Shown here one piece after another: positions 37 through 60,688 of a stretch of 64,000 bases of DNA. The DNA is taken from assembly GCA_030540395.1 (NCBI GenBank), contig JAUNWI010000003.1, forward strand, positions 95,295 through 159,294, given 5' to 3'. The stretch comes from Phascolarctobacterium sp. (lineage in GTDB: Bacteria > Bacillota > Negativicutes > Acidaminococcales > Acidaminococcaceae). The notes beneath the pieces are model-generated. The model was given only the letters and a program-made list of their open reading frames with translations. It did no database searches and was not told the DNA's origin. The translations under genes and the position numbers were made by a program. Positions within the stretch are counted from its first letter, which is position 1. Every line of letters starts with the position of its first letter.

Positions 37-1074
37 TCAGTTACCCCCAAATCCGTAGGTTCGCTTGACCATTAAATATACGAAGCAGGGCGCGCCGATC
101 AGCGAAATCAGTATGCCTATGGGCAGTTCCGTCCGCGGCAGAATAACTCGGCACAGTACGTCGGCCCAAACTAAGAAGATACTGCCGCTTAGAGCGCTAA
201 CCGCTACCAAATGCTTGTGGTCCGTACCCGTCAGCATCCGCACAACATGGGGCACAATCAGCCCCACGAAGCCAATCATACCTGCTGCATATACGGCAAA
301 GCCCACTACTACAGAGCTGACTAGAAGATAACCCTGTCTGTACCAATGCAGGTCCCGACCTAGCGTAACCGCCGTTTCGTCGCCCAAGAGCATTAAATTC
401 AAAATGCGGTGCTGCGTGCAGAAGAATAGTACGGCTATCACAGTCAGCGGCACCATAATCTGCAATAAATCCCAGCTGGCCCCAGCCATACTGCCCATCA
501 GCCAATAGGTTATGCTCTGCATGCCCTCCATATTGTTGGCAAAGTACACGATAAAGCTGGCAAACGCGCTGCACACTGCGCTCAGCGCCATTCCTGCCAA
601 CAGCAGCTTAACCGAATTGGCTCTTCCGCCAATGTTGGCGATAAACATAACCGCCAACGATACGCCAAAAGCTCCCGAAAAGGCGGCAATACCTACAAAG
701 TTTTCGCCCATAGCTGCGCCCACGCCTAACAAAATCGCCGCCGTAGCGCCCAGCGAAGCGCCGGAGGAAACGCCTAAAATATACGGGTCGGCCAAGGGAT
801 TTTTGACAATGGCCTGCATAATCACACCGCAAACGGAAAGACCTGCGCCGATGCAGGCGGCCAGCAGGATACGCGGCATACGCAGCAGCCACACGATGTC
901 GTGGATGGGCAGCATTGCCTCCGGTAAATTTGCTCCATCGCTAAAGAGACCCTCTTGGAGTACTAAAACAATATCCTGTATAGAAATTTCAGCGCTGCCA
1001 AAGGATACTGATATAACTATAGAGATTATCAAAATCAATGCTAAAATTATGGTTAACCCAATTCTATTATTCAT
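37..1074 (-). CDS. FecCD/BtuC-family ABC transporter permease
   Basis: Hydrophobic; IVWLLRMPRILLA, NPLADPYILGVSSGA, EAA-like LLGDETAVTLG, GMIGFVGLIVPH motifs. Confidence 0.93.
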   Translation of the reverse strand: MNNRIGLTIILALILIISIVISVSFGSAEISIQDIVLVLQEGLFSDGANLPEAMLPIHDIVWLLRMPRILLAACIGAGLSVCGVIMQAIVKNPLADPYILGVSSGASLGATAAILLGVGAAMGENFVGIAAFSGAFGVSLAVMFIANIGGRANSVKLLLAGMALSAVCSAFASFIVYFANNMEGMQSITYWLMGSMAGASWDLLQIMVPLTVIAVLFFCTQHRILNLMLLGDETAVTLGRDLHWYRQGYLLVSSVVVGFAVYAAGMIGFVGLIVPHVVRMLTGTDHKHLVAVSALSGSIFLVWADVLCRVILPRTELPIGILISLIGAPCFVYLMVKRTYGFGGN

Positions 1075-2075
1075 TCCTTTTCACCATTAACGTCAGGATA
1101 TAATCCTTGTTTAAATACCCTTATTCCATCTAATGTTCTTGTAGCGCTGGCATACATATACATCAAAGGAATAGCATATACACGCCTATTCTTTATCGCT
1201 TTTATACTTCTATACGCTTTATTATTAATTATCCTATCTACGCAAGCCTGCGCATCTTCCTGCCAACCTATACAGACCACAAAAATCACATTTGGATTTA
1301 ACTGAATAAGATTTTCCGCGCCAATTCTGCTGCCACACTCCATAATACTCCCACCAAGTTTAGTTACCATATCGCCGCCTAACTTATTTTTTCCATAGAC
1401 TACAATATTATTCCCCTGCGTTTCTATGATTAAAACATTTTGTTTGTCTCGATTTTTGCTTTTTTCAACAGCATCGGCAATCTCTGCTTTCATCTCTTGA
1501 ATCATTTCTTGAGCAAGCGCTTCTTTATGAAAAATCTTACCCATATTATTTATAAAAATATATTCATCTTCGACTCTGCCTACAGGTAAAATAGAATTAG
1601 AGTTTTCTACAATATATGTATTAACTCCCCTGTTTCGCCAAAATTCTGTACTTCTTAACGCTCTATTAGAAAAGGTTGATTGCCAGCCTACAATAAAGTC
1701 TGGATACAGCATCAGCGCCGTTTCTAAATCAAAATCATGTCTGCTTAAAGCGGGCAGTTTTTCAGCTCTTGCTTTGTATTTACTTAAAAATTCTGTCGTA
1801 TGATTAGAAGTACACGCAGCTGCTATAATAGCTTTGTCTTCTTGCAACGCCAATAAAGTTTCAATAGTATTTTGTTGATTTGCTATAACTCTTTTAGGCT
1901 TATTATAAAATTTCAATAAAGTTCTGCTTCTGTCAGAATTATAATTATTTACTGTTACAGGATACCCAATATCATCGCTAATATTGCTAATATCTTTCGG
2001 CCTCACAGAACTATTACTACATGCAGATAAAACCAAACATATTAAAAGCAGCATAGTAAATTTTATCAATTTCAC
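1071..2075 (-). CDS. BtuF/FecB-like substrate-binding lipoprotein
   Basis: Lipobox LSAC; PKRVIA, ETALMLYPDFIV, AIKNRRVY segments; GTG start with GGAGG RBS; 4-nt overlap with the permease. Confidence 0.88.
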   Translation of the reverse strand: MKLIKFTMLLLICLVLSACSNSSVRPKDISNISDDIGYPVTVNNYNSDRSRTLLKFYNKPKRVIANQQNTIETLLALQEDKAIIAAACTSNHTTEFLSKYKARAEKLPALSRHDFDLETALMLYPDFIVGWQSTFSNRALRSTEFWRNRGVNTYIVENSNSILPVGRVEDEYIFINNMGKIFHKEALAQEMIQEMKAEIADAVEKSKNRDKQNVLIIETQGNNIVVYGKNKLGGDMVTKLGGSIMECGSRIGAENLIQLNPNVIFVVCIGWQEDAQACVDRIINNKAYRSIKAIKNRRVYAIPLMYMYASATRTLDGIRVFKQGLYPDVNGEKE

Positions 2076-2127
2076 TATCTTACATCCTCCAAATGGAGAG
2101 GGCAGCTAAAAGCTGCCCCAAGATTAC

Positions 2128-4293
2128 TTAAAACTTATAATTAACACCTATCAAGAAGTTTCTACCTTCCATTGGGAATGTGCCTATACCGTAAGTAGCA
2201 TTGGCCCTAGTTTCATAAGCTTCATTAGTAATATTATTCATTACGAAATAAGCAGTCATTTCTTTAGTGATCTTATAGTTTACATGCATGTTTAATACCG
2301 TAAATTTATTGTCACTGAAATATCTTTCATCTAAGCCAGTATAATGCTCCACATCTAAGCCACCATTCCATTTGCCCTTATTATAATTCAAGCTAGCTAA
2401 GTATTTATTAGTATATTTGTAATTATTATACAAATTATCATACGAGGTATAGGAAGATGACAAATTAGTTAAGTCTTTATCAGTAATAGCATAGCTGAAT
2501 GATCCTCGTAAAGACCAGCTATCATCAAAGTTATGTTCTCCACTAACGTTAAACGCTCTCTTTTTCATCTTAATATTAGTAGAAGTACTCTTATAATCAT
2601 TTTCACTATCAACCCAGATACTATAACGACCAATAGCGTTCTTCATATCAACTAAAGAATAGTTAATATTAATCCTATTCTTTTTATCAAATTGTTTATT
2701 CAAGCCGATGGTATAAGCATCGCCTTTTTCTGACTGTAAAGGTTTATCTGGAGTAAATCTTTGCTGGTTTTCAATATCAGCAGCATATGGTGTATTATAT
2801 ACTTGACTCCAGGAAAAATACACGTCGCCAGTATCGTCAAATTTATATTCAGCAAAAGCGCCCATAGTAACCTTGCCATCGCTTTCGGCATTTACTTTAC
2901 CGTCTTTTTTAGAATCGCCAACATAACTATAGCGTAATCCAGGAGTTACAGTCCATTTATTGCCTAATTTAATTTTATCCTGAATAAAAGCGCTAAAGCT
3001 ATCTCTAGTAATATGCTGAGTGCTAGAACTAGTTTCTGTTTCCAGTTTATCATATTTACTATGCTGATAAGTCATACCGGCATAGAGATAATCCTTACTG
3101 TTTATTTTACGTCCTACACGCAGTTCTGTACCCTTAACGTCTTCCTCATGGCTGGCAATGTCTAATCTATCAAATCCGCTTAGATCATTTTTGATGCGAT
3201 AACGATGCATATAATGCTCATTTTTATTATTATAAAAACGAATATAGTTATCTACTTGATCAATTTTAGAAAAAGTATATTTTAAGTCTATATCATTAGC
3301 CTTAACCTTAGAATAGCTGCCCATTACAGAATCACCATAATAATACCACCATCTATGCCAACGATTATTAGGATTAGTAACACCTGGTTGCCGATTGCCA
3401 GTTGCTAAATAATCCTTAACTGCGCCTTCCCATTCGTAGTCCGGTGCAAAAATAGGATATCCAGCATAATTATCTATACGGGAATAAGAGAAAGTTAACG
3501 CTCTGTTATTATCAAAATCATAATCCAATTTGATAAAAGCAGTATCTTCCTTGTAATCAGTATTCTTAAAAGTTTTTGTCGTATTCAAATAATGATCTTT
3601 GTATTTAGTATCATCACCTTGATCACGCGACCAAGAAGCTAAATAACCAAATTTATCTTTGCGGCCCATATGTGCAATGCTGCCCTTTCTCTTTCCCCAA
3701 GAACCGGCTGCAAGATCAATATTTGTACTGGAATGATCAGCCTTTTTAGTAATGATATTAATAACGCCGCCAGTAGCATCACTGCCATAAGCTAAAGACG
3801 CAGCGCCTCTTATTACTTCAATTCGTTCAATATTAGCAATGCCCATCAACAAAGCTACTTCGCCCTTGCTGCGTTCATTCATATTGGTAGTAATGGCATC
3901 GCTGCCCATACGTTTCCCATCCACACAAAAGATAACCCTATTATCGCCATTAATAGCAACTGTAGCGCCAGTATAAGCATTGCCAAACTCTATACCCCTG
4001 TAACCAGGAGTTTTGACCTCTACACCAGGTACCTTACTAATAGCATCAGTTACGTTATCATAATGCTGCTTCTCAATTTCTCTGCTTGTAATAACAGTAA
4101 CATCGCCGCCAGTACGAATGATTTTTCCATCATAGGTATTATGGGGATTAGCATCATCCATTCTGCCTTCAACCACAATTTCATCCAAATTATAGTTTTC
4201 AGGTTTTTCTGCACTGGCAGAAAGGACAAAACCTACACTGGCAATGGCGCACAGCACCGACATGACTAAAGCTTGCTTCTTTTTAAACATCAT
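2128..4293 (-). CDS. TonB-dependent outer-membrane receptor, BtuB-like (cobalamin)
   Basis: Signal peptide, TonB-box-like DEIVVEG, plug motif IERIEVIRGAASLAYGSDATGGVINIITK, C-terminal Phe (VNYKF); lies behind a cobalamin riboswitch. Confidence 0.88.
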   Translation of the reverse strand: MMFKKKQALVMSVLCAIASVGFVLSASAEKPENYNLDEIVVEGRMDDANPHNTYDGKIIRTGGDVTVITSREIEKQHYDNVTDAISKVPGVEVKTPGYRGIEFGNAYTGATVAINGDNRVIFCVDGKRMGSDAITTNMNERSKGEVALLMGIANIERIEVIRGAASLAYGSDATGGVINIITKKADHSSTNIDLAAGSWGKRKGSIAHMGRKDKFGYLASWSRDQGDDTKYKDHYLNTTKTFKNTDYKEDTAFIKLDYDFDNNRALTFSYSRIDNYAGYPIFAPDYEWEGAVKDYLATGNRQPGVTNPNNRWHRWWYYYGDSVMGSYSKVKANDIDLKYTFSKIDQVDNYIRFYNNKNEHYMHRYRIKNDLSGFDRLDIASHEEDVKGTELRVGRKINSKDYLYAGMTYQHSKYDKLETETSSSTQHITRDSFSAFIQDKIKLGNKWTVTPGLRYSYVGDSKKDGKVNAESDGKVTMGAFAEYKFDDTGDVYFSWSQVYNTPYAADIENQQRFTPDKPLQSEKGDAYTIGLNKQFDKKNRININYSLVDMKNAIGRYSIWVDSENDYKSTSTNIKMKKRAFNVSGEHNFDDSWSLRGSFSYAITDKDLTNLSSSYTSYDNLYNNYKYTNKYLASLNYNKGKWNGGLDVEHYTGLDERYFSDNKFTVLNMHVNYKITKEMTAYFVMNNITNEAYETRANATYGIGTFPMEGRNFLIGVNYKF

Positions 4294-4363
4294 TCAACAC
4301 CTCATAAATTTATTTTTTAAATCAAACCACCGCGCTGTCCGTGTTTCGCTTGCAACCTGATTT

Positions 4364-4400
4364 AAAAGCAAAAATACCCTTCTGCTTCCAGCAAAAGGGT
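4364..4400 (-). terminator. Intrinsic terminator, likely the riboswitch expression platform
   Basis: Minus strand ACCCTTTTGC-tggaa-GCAGAAGGGT followed by ATTTTTGCTTTT, between the riboswitch and the receptor start. Confidence 0.75.
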
Positions 4401-4452
4401 ACACTTATCCAAAGGTGACCATTCTGTCTTTCGCAGAAATTTTAAGTCTTAT

Positions 4453-4600
4453 TCTAGGTAGTTCTTCTGGCTCTGCTTCATCATCAATCTCGCCTTCCCA
4501 GTTTCCCAGTGACATATTGAAATTGACTCCACATTACAGCTGCGGGACAGCACAGGCTTCACACCTGTTTCTCTTTTATGCAATTTGCACCTAAAATATA
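4453..4600 (-). promoter_or_regulatory. Cobalamin (AdoCbl) riboswitch
   Basis: Minus strand AGGTGC..GCAT-AAAAGAGAAACAGGTG-TGAAGCCTG-TGCTGTCCCGCAGCTGTAA...GTCACTGGGAAACTGGGAAGGC...GAGCCAGAAGAACTACC matches the conserved order of B12-element motifs. Confidence 0.93.
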
Positions 4601-4651
4601 AGCATATTTTATTTTATTCATAAGCATTATTAATACTAGTTATCTAGAGTA

Positions 4652-4680
4652 AGTATATATCATTTGTATTTACTTGTCAA
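4652..4680 (-). promoter_or_regulatory. Sigma70/SigA promoter for the riboswitch-btu operon
   Basis: TTGACA-17 nt-TATACT on the minus strand. Confidence 0.8.
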
Positions 4681-4689
4681 TACTTTTGT

Positions 4690-5109
4690 CTAACAAAAAA
4701 GCCTGGCCATCACAGCCAAGCTCCTGTTTCGTTTATAGTGTTCAAGTTTATAATGTGTTCCCTGTACAATTTTGATGCCGCAAGCTGCTAATTCATCAGC
4801 AATTTCCTTGATGGTAGGGCACAAATGCTTTTCGCCCTGCTCATCCTTTTTGCTAGTACAATGGCTCAAGTGCAAAGCATCTATCTCCAAGGCCTTCATG
4901 CGCTCGATTTTCTTGCGAATGCCTTCTTGGTTTTCCAGCATGGAATCGCCACAGCCATTGCAGGTCCACATAGCCATCAAACGCAGCTCTTCCTCGCCAT
5001 ATTGAGCAAAAGCTTTGTCCTTGTCGTAAAACGCTCTTAAACAGCCTGCTCCTGCACAGGATGCAGAAGTCTTTAAACAACGGATAATTGCTATCTTTTT
5101 CAAATGCAT
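4690..5109 (-). CDS. CGGC-domain protein (Cys-rich, putative metal/redox)
   Basis: IAIIRC..CAGAGC..AF..F..Y..WTCNGC..HLSHC..CP..GIKIVQGTH pattern; AGGGGG RBS. Confidence 0.85.
   Translation of the reverse strand: MHLKKIAIIRCLKTSASCAGAGCLRAFYDKDKAFAQYGEEELRLMAMWTCNGCGDSMLENQEGIRKKIERMKALEIDALHLSHCTSKKDEQGEKHLCPTIKEIADELAACGIKIVQGTHYKLEHYKRNRSLAVMARLFC
4695..4722 (-). terminator. Intrinsic terminator of the second TonB-receptor operon
   Basis: AGCTTGGC-tgtgatg-GCCAGGCT then T-run on the minus strand; lies inside the last codons of the CGGC ORF. Confidence 0.6.
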
Positions 5110-5127
5110 AACCCCCTAAAGCCTTTT

Positions 5128-5616
5128 CTATTGTATTTCAGAATTAATCACCTTAATTATAACCCGAGCATATTCCTCCTGACCAGAATAAAATTTAAGC
5201 ACACCCTGCGCTACATCATGATTCTTTAAAGCTTCCCGTGGCACGCACAGCTCCACATTCAGAGGAATCCATCCGCTCCTAGACTTTAAAGCATCAGATG
5301 GCAGAAGCTCTGTCCAAATACCCTTTTTGGTCCCTTGTGACAAAAACATTTCCATATCGCTGCCACTACAGAGCAACGGCTCTTTACTATCTGTCTGCAA
5401 ACGCAAATAAAGTGTGTACATATTGGGATTAAGCAGCTTTTTTACAACTCCCTGTTGCCCCAAATCCACAGTACAGGTAGCAATTTTTCCTTTAGTCAAA
5501 TTAATTTTTGCATTCAATCTATCTCGAGCATTCTCCAAGCGTATTCCCGTCATGACAAACATCACAGCGAGCATAGCAATGAATAGAGCCATTCTTCGCA
5601 ACCATTTCTTACTCAT
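5128..5616 (-). CDS. Hypothetical protein with N-terminal membrane anchor and probable periplasmic beta-rich domain
   Basis: Basic N-terminus followed by hydrophobic MALFIAMLAVMFVM; start overlaps the upstream stop (ATGAGTAA). Confidence 0.75.
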   Translation of the reverse strand: MSKKWLRRMALFIAMLAVMFVMTGIRLENARDRLNAKINLTKGKIATCTVDLGQQGVVKKLLNPNMYTLYLRLQTDSKEPLLCSGSDMEMFLSQGTKKGIWTELLPSDALKSRSGWIPLNVELCVPREALKNHDVAQGVLKFYSGQEEYARVIIKVINSEIQ

Positions 5617-5803
5617 GCTGCACCACCCGTCCCTTCATACGTTGATAGCAATATTTGACGGCCAAAAACAGCAGAGCAAAAATGCCCGGCGTGCAATTAA
5701 AGCCACAGCTGCCACACAGTCCTGTGCAGCCAGCACCCTGCAGACTTAATGTACTCACCGGAATACCCATGGCAATAAGAAAAGAAATAACCTTACTTTT
5801 CAT
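5609..5803 (-). CDS. Small (64 aa) Cys-rich membrane protein
   Basis: GGAGG RBS places the start at 5803; two hydrophobic segments flank GCTGLCGSCGFNCTPG; overlaps both neighbouring genes. Confidence 0.72.
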   Translation of the reverse strand: MKSKVISFLIAMGIPVSTLSLQGAGCTGLCGSCGFNCTPGIFALLFLAVKYCYQRMKGRVVQHE

Positions 5804-6617
5804 GGCAATTCCTCCCATAGTGAATAGCTTTAACAGGGCAGGCATGAGCGCATTGACCGCAGATAATACAATTATGCAAGCTAATTTTTGCTCGCTTCTC
5901 CTGCACCGTAATCGCTCTCATGGGACAGGTTGTAGCGCATTTTTCACAGCCAATGCATTGCTGCTTATTAACCTGCATTATCAGAGTTAAGCCGAGCCCA
6001 CTGCCAAAATAATGCGTTAAATTCTGTAGCGCTCCTACCGGGCATAAAAAATTGCAATAGCCCCGCCCACCCTTAGTGAATATTCCAAAGACAACTATCC
6101 ACATAATGCTTGTCAAAAGCAAGCTAGAGCTTAGGGATATGAAATACCCTCGCGAGTAATAATTAGCCAATAGGTCGAAGAGAAAAAAATTGCAATAGGC
6201 ACAGGCCAAAATTCCACCAATAAAGGGCACTAGACAGAAGCCAGCCAGCATGCCATAGCGAATTGGTGCTATTTCTGTATATTTAATCCAGTCTATTTGC
6301 AGTCGTTCAGGTAGCAGCTTGCTCAAATACTCCGTAAAAGCGCCCGCCGGGCACAGCCTGCCACAAAAAACGGGCCCTAAGAAGAAGGCGGCTATAAGCA
6401 GAATACCCAAGCTAACCACACTTATAGAGGCATATTGAAAAATTTTGCCATCCAGCAAATGCTCTGTGGGAATGCGCAAGCACAGGCTATGGATGGTTTG
6501 CTCCTGCCATTTGCCGTTTAATAAATAGCCAATTATTTTTTGAAACACCGCAAAGGGTGCATAAAAGAGCACGAAGCCCAAAAGGTAGCCAGCCACACGG
6601 CGTAATTGATAAGACAT
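5793..6617 (-). CDS. NapH/MauN-like polytopic 4Fe-4S binding membrane protein
   Basis: CGRLCPAG and CNFLCPVG motifs plus two CxxCxxCxxxCP motifs; several TM segments; GGAGG RBS. Confidence 0.9.
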   Translation of the reverse strand: MSYQLRRVAGYLLGFVLFYAPFAVFQKIIGYLLNGKWQEQTIHSLCLRIPTEHLLDGKIFQYASISVVSLGILLIAAFFLGPVFCGRLCPAGAFTEYLSKLLPERLQIDWIKYTEIAPIRYGMLAGFCLVPFIGGILACAYCNFFLFDLLANYYSRGYFISLSSSLLLTSIMWIVVFGIFTKGGRGYCNFLCPVGALQNLTHYFGSGLGLTLIMQVNKQQCIGCEKCATTCPMRAITVQEKRAKISLHNCIICGQCAHACPVKAIHYGRNCHEK

Positions 6618-6786
6618 GTACTCGACCTCCTTGTATTTATCTTTGTAACTATTGTAAGCTATAAGTGTGGCTAATTTATGGCAAAGATAAATTTTTTATT
6701 GCTTTTCGTAAGTATGCTGGCAAAGGCAAATAGGGATAGGACACAAGACCCTACCCCCATTTGGAGATGTATGTAAACAAGTTGTA

Positions 6787-8982
6787 TTAGAAGCTGTAAC
6801 GTAAGCCAACATTATAGGTTCTGCCAGAGGTAGCTTCACTGCAATAGAATTCTCTGTTGAACAAATTATTAACGCCGAATTGCAGGACCATGCCCTTGGA
6901 TAATGTATAATTGATGGCTGTGTTGACAATAAAGAAAGCATCCTCTGCGCCATATTCGCCAGACGGGCTGTCAGGGTTCTGACGTTCGCTCACATATTGG
7001 CAATCTAACAGAGCATTCCATCTATCATAATTATATTCAACGCCCGCGTGCAGCAAGTGCTTAGGAATGCTATATTGATTGCTTTCCTTACCCTGATATT
7101 CCTTAGTTCCTCGTTGCCATGCGTAATTAATATATCCATTAAATTTTTCGCTAAATTTATGAGTCAAATCAAATTCAACGCCCTTACGTTTCTCCGAGCT
7201 CAGATTGATGTATTTTTTTACACCCTTACCCATGAAGCTCTCTCCTGGAAGCAAACCAGTGGCCTCAATTTTATCGTCGGTCTTCACATGATACAAGGTA
7301 ACTCCTAAATCAGTATTGTCAGATAATCTTTTTTTCATACCCAGCTCAAAGGTATCAGATGTTTCAGGGTCAAGGTCAGGGTTGGGCACATACCAATAAC
7401 TGCTAAATTCAGAATAACGATACATCTTATACATCGTAGGAGGTCTAAAGGAATGTCCATAAGATACATAATAGTTTGTATTCTCATCAGCTTTAAAATC
7501 AAAAGCTACCTTGGGGCTTAACTCATTATAGGTTTTGGACTCGGAAGTTTCATGGATATCATTAGGGCCATCGGTATTCATAAACGTACCAGAGCCCTTT
7601 TTATAATGGTCCAATCTCAAGCCCAAATACATAGTCCAAGGATCATTGAACTTATACTCATCCTGAATAAACACAGCTAGATTATTAACCTTGCCATGGT
7701 CCTGTCCAGTATGAGCTGTGATAGAGTTCTCATCTTTCCAATTGCTAACTTTAAACCTATCCTGAGTCATCTCTTCCTGTTTAAAATTGGCGCCAGCGAC
7801 GATGGTATGCTTGCCAATATTCTCCCAAGCCTTCTCTAGGTCATAATTTACGACCTTGCCAGGGTGGGAACTATAGCTACCAGCTCCCATCCAATCTATA
7901 TCATTATATGTATCAGGCACTGAAGGACTGGTGAAGCCGTCCTTTTTACTGTCAACATAGCTTATGCTTGCTGTTAATTTATTCTCTTCATCCTTATATG
8001 TTAAGGCATGAGTATCCTTTTCGTACCAATTCTCATATCCATAAAATTTACTTGCCTTTAGTGTAATCTTATCTCCATTCTGGGTTGTTACAGTACCTGT
8101 ATAAACCGGATTTCCTGCTGAGTCCCGTACATAGCTTTTAGCATTAGCATATGAAAAAGTAGTTTTCGTTTTACCATAAGTATATTTTAAGAATTTATTT
8201 TCATCAAAATTATACTTAATGTGGGCATTATAATTTTCATGCTCCCAATCTCGTTCGCCCTGGCTACCGAAAACGTAGTAACCATTACCTAATTGAGGTA
8301 GATTTGCCGTATACGTGCCAGTCCCAGACGACCCTTTAGCTGTTCTATAAGCTCCATAATATCCATCTGACTTTCTATTCTCGTAGCCCAAGCCAAATGA
8401 CCACTTATCATTCACTTTAGAGTTAACCTGCAAAGATTTCTTCCAAGTAGAGTTGCTACCATACGAAACCACTGCATTAACATTGGTACCAATCTTTTGG
8501 GCCTCTTTAGTAGTAATGTTGATTACACCACCGACAGCGTAACCGCCATAAATAGAGGATGCAGCTCCGCGTAAAACTTCAATGCGTTCAATATTTTCCA
8601 CAGGAATAGTATTCAAATTAGCAGAACCATCATAGGTTGTATTCATTTGCATACCATCCACTAAAATCAATATATCTTCGGAGCTAAAACCTCTAAGCTG
8701 GATACCACTTTGTGCAGATTGATTCATATACACACCGGGCAAATGCTGCAAAGCCTCCTGCATTGAGGTAATATTCTTTTTCTCAATATCTGCAGCAGTC
8801 ACAACACTAACACTTGCAGGTACTTCCTGTAGTTGTTTCATTGTTCTCGTTGCCGTGACCACCATCGTATCCAATGCAAATTCGCCAACACTCTCTTCAG
8901 CAAACGCCGTTGTCCCCCCCGTAAGCACAGAAGTGCAAATCAAAGCAGCAAGTAAAGCTTTATTGTTCATTGCTTTTTTCAT
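6787..8982 (-). CDS. TonB-dependent outer-membrane receptor, substrate unknown
   Basis: Start at MKKAM after GGAGGT RBS; DTMVVTATRT, EVPASVSVVT, IERIEVLRGAASSIYGG..GGVINITTK, C-terminal LRYSF. Confidence 0.92.
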   Translation of the reverse strand: MKKAMNNKALLAALICTSVLTGGTTAFAEESVGEFALDTMVVTATRTMKQLQEVPASVSVVTAADIEKKNITSMQEALQHLPGVYMNQSAQSGIQLRGFSSEDILILVDGMQMNTTYDGSANLNTIPVENIERIEVLRGAASSIYGGYAVGGVINITTKEAQKIGTNVNAVVSYGSNSTWKKSLQVNSKVNDKWSFGLGYENRKSDGYYGAYRTAKGSSGTGTYTANLPQLGNGYYVFGSQGERDWEHENYNAHIKYNFDENKFLKYTYGKTKTTFSYANAKSYVRDSAGNPVYTGTVTTQNGDKITLKASKFYGYENWYEKDTHALTYKDEENKLTASISYVDSKKDGFTSPSVPDTYNDIDWMGAGSYSSHPGKVVNYDLEKAWENIGKHTIVAGANFKQEEMTQDRFKVSNWKDENSITAHTGQDHGKVNNLAVFIQDEYKFNDPWTMYLGLRLDHYKKGSGTFMNTDGPNDIHETSESKTYNELSPKVAFDFKADENTNYYVSYGHSFRPPTMYKMYRYSEFSSYWYVPNPDLDPETSDTFELGMKKRLSDNTDLGVTLYHVKTDDKIEATGLLPGESFMGKGVKKYINLSSEKRKGVEFDLTHKFSEKFNGYINYAWQRGTKEYQGKESNQYSIPKHLLHAGVEYNYDRWNALLDCQYVSERQNPDSPSGEYGAEDAFFIVNTAINYTLSKGMVLQFGVNNLFNREFYCSEATSGRTYNVGLRYSF

Positions 8983-9075
8983 CGATACTACCTCCCACAT
9001 CTCAAATCATATAGTAGATTATAATATTACTAAGTACAAATTTACCGAGAAACTCAATCAATATTGATTCTCAAT

Positions 9076-9103
9076 TTGCACTTTATCGCTTATATGATAT
9101 AAT
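9076..9103 (+). promoter_or_regulatory. Promoter of the MerR-family gene
   Basis: TTGCAC-16 nt-TATAAT with TG extended -10; its -10 overlaps that of the divergent promoter. Confidence 0.6.
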
Positions 9104-9129
9104 AAGATGTATAGTAGCTAGACAGTCAA
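9099..9129 (-). promoter_or_regulatory. MerR-type promoter/operator (19-bp spacer) facing the TonB-receptor operon
   Basis: TTGACT-GTCTAGCTACTATACATCT(19 nt)-TATTAT with imperfect dyad TGTCTAG-cta-CTATACA. Confidence 0.75.
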
Positions 9130-9147
9130 GGGGGCAAAGGCAAAATT

Positions 9148-9975
9148 ATGAAAAAATCTTTAGAAAATTATTTTACCACAGGCGAATTGGCCAAAGCCTG
9201 TCATATTTTGCGTAAAACTCTACTTTATTATGATAAACTAGGCCTCATTCAACCCGAAGTAATCCTAGATAATGGTTATCGTTATTACAAGCGAGCACAA
9301 CTGTTTTTATTAGAACTGGTAATAACCTTGCGTAATCTAGATGTTCCGTTAATCTCCATTCAAAAATACTTAGCGAATCGTTCTCCAGTAAATTACAAAC
9401 ATTTACTTTTGGAGCAACAAGTACACATTCAACAGGAAATACAACGATTGCAACAATTAAATGATAAATTAGGTTCTTACTTGGCAGAGTTGGACAAGTT
9501 AAGTACCAGCAATTATGGACATATTAAGCTTGTAGAACAACCTGAGCAATATTATTTTGTAGTAAAAGGCTGCAGGGATAGTGAATCCTTTAAGGAACGC
9601 TCCCTACATGCAGCAAAGTTATTTTTAGCATTAAGAGGAGCTCTACCCTTTAAGCAACATTTTTTTGGTTATATTGTAAATACACAGGCACTTTATAATC
9701 AAGAGCATTTTTACGGCCAAGAATTCTTTTATCCTTTGCCAGAACCCCTACATGATCTCAAATATCGCGTTCGCCCAGCAGGTAAATACCTTACTCTTTA
9801 CTTTCAAGGTACTTATATGCATAACAGTACGGAAAATCTAAAAAAACTAGGACAATACTGTCTCGAGCACAACTTAAAGCCTGTTTCAGATATTTATGTC
9901 ACTAGTCTACTAAACTATTGGACCACTGCCGAAACCCAAGAATATGCTTACAAATTAGAGATAAGAATACAATAG
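9148..9975 (+). CDS. MerR-family transcriptional regulator, BltR/BmrR-like with GyrI-like ligand domain
   Basis: YFTTGELAK.C.I.RKTLLYYDKLGLIQP....NGYRYY HTH, coiled coil, C-terminal RPAGKY..LYFQG segment. Confidence 0.92.
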   Translation: MKKSLENYFTTGELAKACHILRKTLLYYDKLGLIQPEVILDNGYRYYKRAQLFLLELVITLRNLDVPLISIQKYLANRSPVNYKHLLLEQQVHIQQEIQRLQQLNDKLGSYLAELDKLSTSNYGHIKLVEQPEQYYFVVKGCRDSESFKERSLHAAKLFLALRGALPFKQHFFGYIVNTQALYNQEHFYGQEFFYPLPEPLHDLKYRVRPAGKYLTLYFQGTYMHNSTENLKKLGQYCLEHNLKPVSDIYVTSLLNYWTTAETQEYAYKLEIRIQ

Positions 9976-9980
9976 ACACA

Positions 9981-10017
9981 AAAAAGACCATTCATACCGC
10001 CAAGTATGAATGGTCTT
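9981..10017. terminator. Terminator hairpin between convergent genes
   Basis: Perfect 14-bp stem AAGACCATTCATAC-cgccaa-GTATGAATGGTCTT with adjacent A-run. Confidence 0.8.
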
Positions 10018-59702: not shown

Positions 59703-60688
59703 GCTTCGTTATGCTTAAAAAGCTTGAACAGATAGCAGCAGGCCAGGCATAAGCAAACGACCAAGGCGCTGCCAAAGAGTCCGGAAAAGATGGTACCCCA
59801 GGCGGATTCGGAGCCCGGGAAAGCATAATCCGGCAAGAGGGCTGTCAGCTCCTGCAGCTGAGCCGCCGCTGCGTGCCACAGGCCGTTGCCCTCTAGCTCT
59901 GCCGTGCCGGCAATTTTTTCCAAGGACCACTCCAAGCCGTCGGGATTTTCGGAAGCGACAAGGGAAAGACCGCCACCGGCAATGGCTGTGGCACCTGCCA
60001 AAACGGCGAGGGTTTGGGCGAAGCTGTAGTGGCCGCTAGCAGCGCCGCTGTGGCCCGCCAAAAGCTCCGGACGGGCCTGATAAATAAAGAGCAGTACGGA
60101 GGCGATAATAGCACCCTCTACCGCACCAATAGCCAAATGAATGCCCTGCATGGTAAGGGCAAAGGCACTAAAGGGCAGCTCTGTAATGCCGGAAGCAGTG
60201 GTTTCCAAAACCACGCTGAAGGCACCCAGCTGCAGGGTGAAGATGGAACCAAGCATAGAAGCCACAATAATGTGCATTTTGCTCACGCCATGGCGCAAAA
60301 GGGGCTGCCAAATTAAAAGTCCGCCCACAAAGCAGCCATAAAAGGCCATATTCCAAATATTGCAGCCTAAGGCCAAAAGCCCGCCATCCGCAAAGAGCAG
60401 GCATTGGATGGCTAAAATGCCAATCATGGTTAAAAAGGCGGCTTGGGGTCCCAGCAGCGCCGCCAGCAGCATGCTACCGCACAAATGGCCGCTGGAGCCG
60501 GTGCCGGGAATAGTAAAATTAAGCATTTGAGAAGCAAAAACAAAGGCCCCCATAATACCCATCAAGGGAATTTTGCGGGGATTGTTTTCCTCCCGCACTT
60601 TTTTAATAGAATAAGCAGCCACCACGGCGCTGGCAGTGTACATGGTCAGAGCCACGCCGGGGCTTACTAAAGCATCAGCCATATGCAT
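59699..60688 (-). CDS. cbiM: CbiM/NikM-type S component fused to a PDGLE domain
   Basis: N-terminal MHMAD after GGAGG; SSGH, QCLLFADGG, C-terminal NPDGLEW. Confidence 0.85.
   Translation of the reverse strand: MHMADALVSPGVALTMYTASAVVAAYSIKKVREENNPRKIPLMGIMGAFVFASQMLNFTIPGTGSSGHLCGSMLLAALLGPQAAFLTMIGILAIQCLLFADGGLLALGCNIWNMAFYGCFVGGLLIWQPLLRHGVSKMHIIVASMLGSIFTLQLGAFSVVLETTASGITELPFSAFALTMQGIHLAIGAVEGAIIASVLLFIYQARPELLAGHSGAASGHYSFAQTLAVLAGATAIAGGGLSLVASENPDGLEWSLEKIAGTAELEGNGLWHAAAAQLQELTALLPDYAFPGSESAWGTIFSGLFGSALVVCLCLACCYLFKLFKHNEA

Follow-up and report, generated by a model that had tools for sequence, protein, structure and literature searches.

A conserved trio of genes for a NapH-like polyferredoxin, a microprotein with four cysteines and a beta-sandwich protein in Phascolarctobacterium and other Negativicutes, linked to cobalamin riboswitches in several genera

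Positions 4690 to 9975 of a 64,000-nucleotide (nt) stretch of Phascolarctobacterium sp. DNA (contig JAUNWI010000003.1, assembly GCA_030540395.1), hereafter the window, hold five minus-strand genes and a divergent regulator, and three of the five, encoding a NapH-like polyferredoxin, a membrane microprotein and a periplasmic protein, are referred to here as the trio. The regulator, a BmrR/BltR-like MerR protein of 275 amino acids (aa) with a MerR helix-turn-helix (HTH) and a GyrI-like effector domain, lies at 9148-9975 on the plus strand and was assigned by Pfam and structure alignment. On the minus strand, a TonB-dependent receptor of 737 aa with Plug and TonB barrel domains (TBDR1, 6787-9000) is followed by a 169-nt spacer (6618-6786) and then by the membrane polyferredoxin (5793-6617; 274 aa), which has four transmembrane (TM) helices and in which Pfam and NCBIfam identified two Fer4_5 and two [4Fe-4S] matches. 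The gene of the four-Cys microprotein (5609-5803, 64 aa) was delimited by its ribosome-binding site and overlaps: the longest open reading frame (ORF) extends to 5845, and the conserved ATG at 5803 has a GGGAGG site upstream and overlaps the polyferredoxin stop by 11 nt. At its other end, the junction ATGAGTAA gives an 8-nt overlap with the gene of P162 (5128-5616), a protein of 162 aa predicted by AlphaFold2 to consist of an N-terminal TM anchor and a periplasmic β-sandwich. A CGGC-domain protein of 139 aa (4690-5109, PF08821) follows after a gap of 18 nt, and an intrinsic terminator on the same strand (4692-4733; hairpin and U-run, -18.9 kcal/mol, z = -3.98) overlaps the 3' end of its ORF. 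An earlier note on this DNA had described five co-oriented genes with overlaps, an 18-nt gap, a terminator and a divergent regulator, all of which were found by analysis of ORFs, junction sequence and fold. The spacer between receptor and polyferredoxin folds into a strong hairpin (AAAUGGGGGUAGGG...CCUAUCCCUAUUU; -39.2 kcal/mol, z = -2.5) with no Rfam match, and it is possibly a leaky or partial terminator, or a processing site, that would set the receptor-to-trio ratio.

When 21 Negativicutes loci with long flanks were searched by tblastn using the window's proteins, the genes of the polyferredoxin, the microprotein and P162 were adjacent in all 21, and the trio was intact in 20 of them. The exception, L049 (L and G numbers are our designations of loci and genomes), carries a frameshifted NapH-like gene and gave no tblastn match to the microprotein. 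In most of these loci the coordinates of microprotein and P162 overlap or abut. A TBDR1-type receptor lies directly upstream of the trio in about 13 of the 21 loci, a BmrR-like MerR gene is divergent to the receptor in eight, mainly as a Phascolarctobacterium feature, and the CGGC gene adjoins the trio in only a few. The earlier note had taken six families as one gene set; this comparison did not sustain that view, since only the polyferredoxin, the microprotein and P162 are fixed. The conserved unit is thus the trio, while MerR and CGGC are accessories and the receptor is frequent and swapped between lineages. That these three genes work together as one functional unit is a conclusion in which we have high confidence.

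The P162 family is rare, with just 72 representative clusters among 1.84 billion proteins and an occurrence in 42 of 401 Negativicutes genomes (12 of 110 genera). Even representatives as distant as 19-30% identity are accompanied by a Fer4_5 polyferredoxin and a small ORF with four Cys, and the trio is kept in distant lineages wherever the contig permits. The surroundings of these distant trios vary: the monoderm Heliophilum fasciatum carries the trio without a receptor, one contig reads receptor, trio and TPR protein, L058 reads TonB-dependent receptor, CobN-like, trio, CbiZ and CobN-like, L059 has an HMA P-type ATPase and a CcdA/DsbD_2 protein before the trio, L062 has a C_GCAxxG_C_C protein before it, and in one locus the trio is followed by CGGC. 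No natural fusion of trio members turned up in the 120 polyferredoxin homologues listed out of 419 or in the 72 P162 representatives; the long N-terminus of one entry, P0118, looks like a miscalled start.

In sequence, the polyferredoxin contains two CX3CP and two CX2CX2CX3CP motifs, and C85/C89, C188/C192 and the eight ferredoxin Cys are invariant and aligned with those of E. coli NapH. Beyond these, H43 and C46 in outer loop 1 and the pair C139-x2-C142 near the outer end of the third TM helix were invariant in the 14 homologues that we aligned, from Negativicutes, Heliophilum and metagenome lineages, and all four are absent from E. coli NapH. Although NapH/MauN is its best NCBIfam match, the protein falls below the cut-offs of these models (75.0 against 213.05 bits for TIGR02163 and 67 against 234 bits for NF007013), and in databases it is labelled just '4Fe-4S binding protein'. 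Neither a NapG/MauM partner nor a nap or mau enzyme was present in the window locus or in the 21 related loci. The NapH/FtrD type proposed in the earlier note therefore holds for the NapH-like motifs, but not for the NapH/MauN cut-offs or for the additional outer His and Cys residues, and the comparison with FtrD stands only as an analogy, as no P19/FTR1 partner lies at the locus.

The microprotein has two hydrophobic segments flanking a C-x-G-x-C-G-x-C-x3-C-x-PG loop, which can be read as two tandem CX3C units and would, as a pattern, echo the CX3CP pair of NapH. The four-Cys motif followed by PG was kept in 18 aligned loci, and distant copies retain the four Cys with variations. Lys and Arg residues occur at both ends of the protein and not in the loop, which by the positive-inside rule suggests that the loop faces outward or is re-entrant. 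For P162, the AlphaFold2 model had a predicted local distance difference test score (pLDDT) of 89.9, with an N-terminal TM helix and a β-sandwich, and Foldseek returned just generic immunoglobulin (Ig)- or cupredoxin-like sandwiches at a TM-score of about 0.4, giving no functional lead. Across the wide P162 family the conserved positions are D51, K59, P64, W101, E122, N158 and S159 together with the motif SQGSKKG-W, and the protein is more likely a holder of cargo or partner than a redox centre; in databases it is labelled 'hypothetical protein'. Neither P162 nor the microprotein gave an NCBIfam match or a Pfam match even at E <= 10, and FixH, YtkA, DUF4198, FixS and the FeoB-associated Cys-rich families were excluded at the sequence level by this empty Pfam result.

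For the receptor, the best NCBIfam model was that of haem/haemoglobin receptors (TIGR01785), which TBDR1 matched below the cut-off (277.3 against 316.85 bits), and its scores with the BtuB models were 184 against 599.7 bits (TIGR01779) and 118 against 836 bits (NF007926). TBDR1 is 74% identical to its Schwartzia orthologue and about 40% identical to same-genus orthologues at the same position (L002, L034-L036), whereas the polyferredoxin is 70-74% identical in both the Schwartzia and the same-genus comparisons and the downstream trio stays at about 70%. Considering this difference, the receptor appears to have been swapped as a cassette, independently of the trio.

The regulator gave Pfam matches to MerR_1 and MerR and a weak GyrI-like match (E = 0.009), and its residues 6-274 align with residues 3-276 of BmrR structures. 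The target promoter of the receptor operon lies on the minus strand at 9099-9129, with a -35 element TTGACT at 9129-9124, a 19-nt spacer and a -10 element TATTAT at 9104-9099; within the spacer, a dyad TGTATAG-N3-CTAGACA spans 9108-9124. It overlaps the extended -10 element of the merR gene's own promoter, which a promoter scan placed on the plus strand at 9075-9103 (TTTGCA, 17 nt, TG-n-TATAAT) and which is kept in eight loci. The MerR-type promoter element is near letter-for-letter identical in those eight loci, and the 19-nt-spacer promoter that the earlier note had described opposite a BltR-like regulator is real and conserved. With its HTH, its GyrI-like domain and a 19-nt spacer containing a dyad, the regulator is, as far as sequence features define the class, of the BmrR/BltR type. 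In G132 (L045) the MerR-type promoter, a cobalamin riboswitch and the receptor stand in series.

The accessory CGGC protein matched PF08821 at 92.2 bits, against a gathering threshold of 27, with the conserved Cys pattern kept. It is cytoplasmic and Cys-rich, and its AlphaFold2 model (pLDDT 87) has a flavodoxin-like fold. A fold search gave no solved-structure match at E <= 0.001, just flavodoxin-like folds, and no functional lead. In L036, L039, L046, L053 and L067, a CGGC gene is found beside the trio or beside an operon for B12 uptake. In the window, the ORF of 139 aa exceeds homologues of 117 aa, and at 4690-4755 its 20-aa tail crosses the terminator hairpin, which looks like the outcome of losing the normal stop codon. 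Around distant trios, the place of CGGC is filled by the C_GCAxxG_C_C protein (L062, 2406-2798) and by the CcdA/DsbD_2 protein (L059, 6338-7228).

A link to vitamin B12 emerged on the other side of the terminator, where a riboswitch-led btuB-F-C operon begins 80 nt beyond the cluster, both riboswitch and operon having been missed in the earlier note. All of its elements lie on the minus strand: a promoter at 4652-4680 (TTGACA, 17 nt, TATACT; 11 of 12 consensus positions), a cobalamin riboswitch aptamer at 4440-4609 (RF00174, 98 bits, E = 6.6e-24), a riboswitch terminator at 4374-4402 found by terminator scan, and the controlled uptake operon at 37-4293 with a second receptor, TBDR2 (2128-4293), a Peripla_BP_2 binding protein (1071-2075) and a FecCD permease (37-1074), whose ATPase lies just outside the window. 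In other genomes, the same riboswitch family precedes the trio itself. RF00174 lies directly upstream of TBDR1 and the trio in G132 (L045), G168 and G054 (L050), where the TBDR1 orthologues are 50-54% identical to that of the window; directly upstream of a receptor-less trio in G160 (L051); upstream of nine genes that make up the operon btuB-F-C-D-CGGC-TBDR1-trio in G147 and, probably, in G256; and, at the lower score of 41.9 bits, before a long operon in G200 (L049). A cobalamin riboswitch therefore controls a trio operon in at least five of the 12 trio genera, from three families (genera g6, g9, g11, g30 and g69 of our set, g11 being the weak case). Taking the cobalamin regulon operationally as the genes in an operon directly behind RF00174, the trio belongs to it in several independent lineages, and in the window solely the neighbouring operon is riboswitch-controlled.

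Neighbouring genes point in the same direction. CbiK lies immediately before the polyferredoxin in L048, cbiD follows the trio behind an adenosylcobalamin riboswitch in L051, and CobN and CbiZ flank the trio in L058, which belongs to an unrelated lineage; both chelatases are without signal peptides and hence cytoplasmic. Peripla_BP_2/FecCD systems neighbour the trio in many loci, and due to their frequency an organic chelate fits better than a free ion as the cargo. The cargo list of the earlier note (siderophore, haem, corrinoid, quinone or metal) is narrowed by the riboswitch linkage towards a corrinoid or cobalt. Since the module belongs to the cobalamin regulon of several genera, the cargo is most likely a corrinoid or a cobalt or other metal chelate, and we consider it probable that the trio serves corrinoid or cobalt acquisition.

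Some of the genomes concerned have an unusually large B12 regulon: G132, G168 and G200, Negativicutes genomes of about 2.2-2.4 Mb, contain 15-19 cobalamin riboswitches with tandem riboswitch-receptor operons. CbiM was found in 13 of the 42 trio genomes and in 151 of 359 others, which is no meaningful anticorrelation and does not tell a supply of cobalt apart from the salvage of corrinoids. The window itself carries a CbiM-family gene at about 60062-60685 on the minus strand, in an open frame of 369 aa that is possibly a CbiM-N fusion. A link to a NiCo riboswitch was considered and rejected, as the riboswitch in L001, from a metagenome-assembled Phascolarctobacterium genome, controls czcD, and the neighbouring trio is only a deletion remnant. 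In this remnant (L001, 6419-8890), a chimeric ORF after the NiCo riboswitch-czcD unit fuses the C-terminus of a TonB receptor to the C-terminus of the microprotein, and the polyferredoxin is deleted.

The region around the cluster is itself unusual in composition, with a G+C content of 33-43% over about 1000-10000 against 52-55% in the flanks. The window shares its DUF2344/radical-SAM flank with L038, a locus of the same genus whose trio has no receptor or MerR. The low G+C content and this common flank suggest that the region is a variable island exchanged by horizontal transfer. At roughly 1.2-2.5 kb ahead of the window (L053, 9786-11047; G000:C17), the ABC ATPase is followed by the truncated reverse transcriptase/maturase of a group II intron, by a remnant of P162 that covers residues 88-150 at 73% identity, and by a further CGGC gene that is intact and 89% identical. 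Together they have the appearance of another copy of the module that has been disrupted and that stands at the 3' end of the operon behind the riboswitch. Because decayed copies occur in L001 and L039 and a remnant occurs in this genome, the trio locus is dispensable in some strains.

NapH-like proteins are treated as modular transmembrane electron conduits (PMC8238504), and one of them, PceC, is thought to serve a corrinoid enzyme (PMC5928378). On this ground, we propose that the trio is a transmembrane electron conduit which reduces a TonB-imported corrinoid or other cobalt chelate at the periplasmic face, a proposal that we regard as plausible while stopping just short of calling it probable. 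The linkage of the genes, their linkage to riboswitches, the conserved residues and the conserved promoter were observed; the direction of electron flow, the topology and the substrate, and with them every step of the flow, are what we infer. In diderms, a TonB-dependent receptor would usually feed the inner-membrane trio. Electrons from ferredoxin, or possibly from the Cys-rich CGGC protein, would first pass to the pair of cytoplasmic [4Fe-4S] clusters in the polyferredoxin, cross the membrane through a centre formed by the CX3CP motifs, and arrive at an outer-face Cys/His site composed of H43, C46, C139 and C142 of the polyferredoxin and the four Cys of the microprotein. Cargo delivered by the receptor and held by P162 would be reduced at this site, and for a corrinoid the change from Co(III) to Co(II)/Co(I) would loosen the axial ligands. 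In this genome, control of the trio would have passed to the BmrR-like MerR activator acting on the 19-nt-spacer promoter. A redox conduit is also consistent with the CcdA/DsbD-type thiol reductant transporter that neighbours the trio in one distant locus. The 'import and reduce' scheme of the earlier note is thus partly supported, and it is still the best reading.

Several observations weigh against this proposal. With respect to cargo, no riboswitch precedes the cluster in the window or in most Phascolarctobacterium loci, and Heliophilum and several metagenome loci are without a B12 signal. CbiD occurs in 40 of the 42 trio genomes, which are probably corrin makers, so that cobalt supply is not separable from salvage. 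The sole full-length solved-structure match of TBDR1 is PhuR (E = 2.6e-30), and it resembles the solved structures of BtuB only in the plug and the first strands. The one distant locus that pairs the trio with a heavy-metal P-type ATPase points to metal ions. With respect to chemistry, conserved Cys, His or Met residues that could act as redox or metal ligands are absent from the wider P162 family, and the clusters of E. coli NapH are said, from the work of Brondijk et al., to face the cytoplasm. Assembly of an outer-face Fe-S centre on a microprotein that is not a substrate of twin-arginine translocation (Tat) is hard to explain, and the outer Cys may for this reason be a thiol/disulfide relay or a metal site instead.

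The receptor similarities raise the possibility of iron or haem acquisition, in which the receptor would import haem or a ferric chelate and the trio would reduce periplasmic Fe(III) so that Fe(II) or haem passes on, as an anaerobe's analogue of FoxB/FpvGHJK. The haem-receptor family is the best family match of TBDR1 and PhuR its only full-length structure match, the FecCD/Peripla_BP_2 neighbours would also suit siderophore or haem systems, a Fur-family gene lies near the Schwartzia locus, and FtrD is generally known as a precedent tying NapH-like proteins to iron uptake. However, TBDR1 stays under the haem-receptor cut-off, the elements that precede the operon in at least five genera are cobalamin riboswitches rather than iron regulators, and the neighbouring CbiZ, CobN and CbiK genes are corrinoid genes. 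We therefore consider an iron or haem role improbable.

Similarly improbable to us is a CcoG-like metal-ion reductase acting on Cu(II) or on Co or Ni species, for a partner transporter or for detoxification, with P162 and the microprotein in FixH- and FixS-like assembly roles. The architecture does parallel that of ccoGHIS, in which a polyferredoxin, a TM protein with an Ig-like domain and a small membrane protein come together, and CcoG reduces Cu(II) (PMC7558416). The distant locus L059 has an HMA P-type ATPase and CcdA immediately upstream of its trio, and a decayed copy lies beside the NiCo riboswitch-czcD unit, although that riboswitch controls czcD and not the trio remnant. In sequence, P162 showed no similarity to FixH, and the microprotein none to FixS, at E <= 10, whereas for the polyferredoxin the NapH/MauN models outscore every CcoG model among the matches listed, and most contexts contain chelate-type binding proteins and TonB receptors.

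Operons such as those of L045 and L050, in which a riboswitch leads TBDR1 and the trio without an ABC importer of their own, would also suit a non-redox uptake or chaperone step in the inner membrane, where the conserved Cys/His site could coordinate cobalt in the manner of the Cys in BtuM, with a regulatory or structural role left to the Fe-S domain. BtuM reportedly offers a precedent for Cys-ligated B12 transport, in work ascribed to Rempel et al. from 2018. The eight invariant ferredoxin Cys and both CX3CP motifs nevertheless indicate electron transfer, the four TM helices of the polyferredoxin plus three more make a small scaffold for a 1.3-kDa corrinoid, and a BtuFCD-type system stands alongside in many loci; a non-redox role is accordingly very improbable. 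A general maintenance of envelope redox, which would keep periplasmic thiols or a cofactor reduced irrespective of cargo and make the B12 linkage incidental, fits the Heliophilum and C_GCAxxG_C_C contexts, which are without uptake genes, and the 1-19 cobalamin riboswitches per trio genome, among which chance adjacency is possible for some and not negligible, but it is also very improbable, given the riboswitch directly before a receptor-less trio in G160, the recurrence of riboswitch control in five genera with different gene orders and the CobN/CbiZ context from an unrelated lineage.

A more far-reaching version of the proposed corrinoid-reducing conduit, which we consider unlikely as a whole, is that the trio would be the first dedicated extracytoplasmic redox machine for cobamide processing. 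Here, a ferredoxin-driven transmembrane reductase would act on incoming Co(III) corrinoids at its outer Cys/His site and, ahead of import by a BtuFCD-type system, would strip upper ligands or free the corrinoid from the receptor or from binders that compete for it. Its gating would fall to the BmrR-like sensor, to a B12 riboswitch or to both, and its specificity for analogues would depend on which of the exchangeable TonB receptors is present. If this were true, anaerobes would widely acquire B12 by way of a reductive step that has gone unrecognised. Gut communities are shaped by the competition for cofactors of the B12 type, and to our knowledge the known schemes of B12 uptake (BtuB, BtuG/H, BtuFCD, BtuM and ECF-CbrT) include no membrane redox step. 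Such a step would come with a conserved Fe-S conduit tied to TonB receptors and cobalamin riboswitches, and its importance would be greatest in Phascolarctobacterium and other succinate-to-propionate converters, which depend on B12 enzymes. It would also give a role to three families labelled '4Fe-4S binding protein' or 'hypothetical', and place an importer under a BmrR-type regulator, to which one genus adds a riboswitch in series. The trio would further highlight a gene of 64 aa, of a size that annotation pipelines can miss. The earlier note knew of no description of the gene set, and our literature searches for the trio or the gene set likewise found no published one.

In comparison with known systems, the regulator shares the full-length alignment, the 19-nt spacer and the dyad of the multidrug-sensing BmrR/BltR activators, which usually drive efflux pumps, whereas here it faces an outer-membrane importer operon and in G132 stands in series with a cobalamin riboswitch. 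In CcoGHIS/FixGHIS, too, a polyferredoxin of the membrane is combined with an Ig-like protein that has a single TM helix and with a small membrane protein, but the trio polyferredoxin is without a fused FixG_C domain, a P-type ATPase is a neighbour in just one distant locus, and the context is TonB and B12 rather than a cbb3 oxidase. FtrABCD and the periplasmic ferrisiderophore reductases FoxB/FpvGHJK likewise couple inner-membrane reduction to the uptake of metal species imported through the outer membrane; however, no P19, cupredoxin FtrB, FTR1, PepSY or haem proteins are found at the locus, the P162 β-sandwich is without Cu ligands, and the signal of the trio is cobalamin, not iron. The flavinylated proteins NosR and PceC/RdhC, which serve periplasmic N2O reductase and corrinoid reductive dehalogenase, respectively, have the same NapH-like TM core, presumed to pass electrons to an extracytoplasmic acceptor (PMC5928378, PMC8238504), while the trio has no FMN-binding domain or ApbE, presents an outer Cys loop instead of a flavin and is linked to uptake rather than respiration. 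NapH/MauN, the family of the NapGH quinol dehydrogenase that works with periplasmic nitrate reductase, shares the four TM helices, the two CX3CP motifs and the C-terminal pair of [4Fe-4S] clusters, yet the trio polyferredoxin is only 23% identical to E. coli NapH, has no NapG, NapC or NapA partner, adds the invariant H43, C46 and C139xxC142, and is partnered by a four-Cys microprotein and a β-sandwich protein. Taken together, we place the trio among the transmembrane electron conduits of the NapH type, from which its set of partners and its physiological context set it apart as new.

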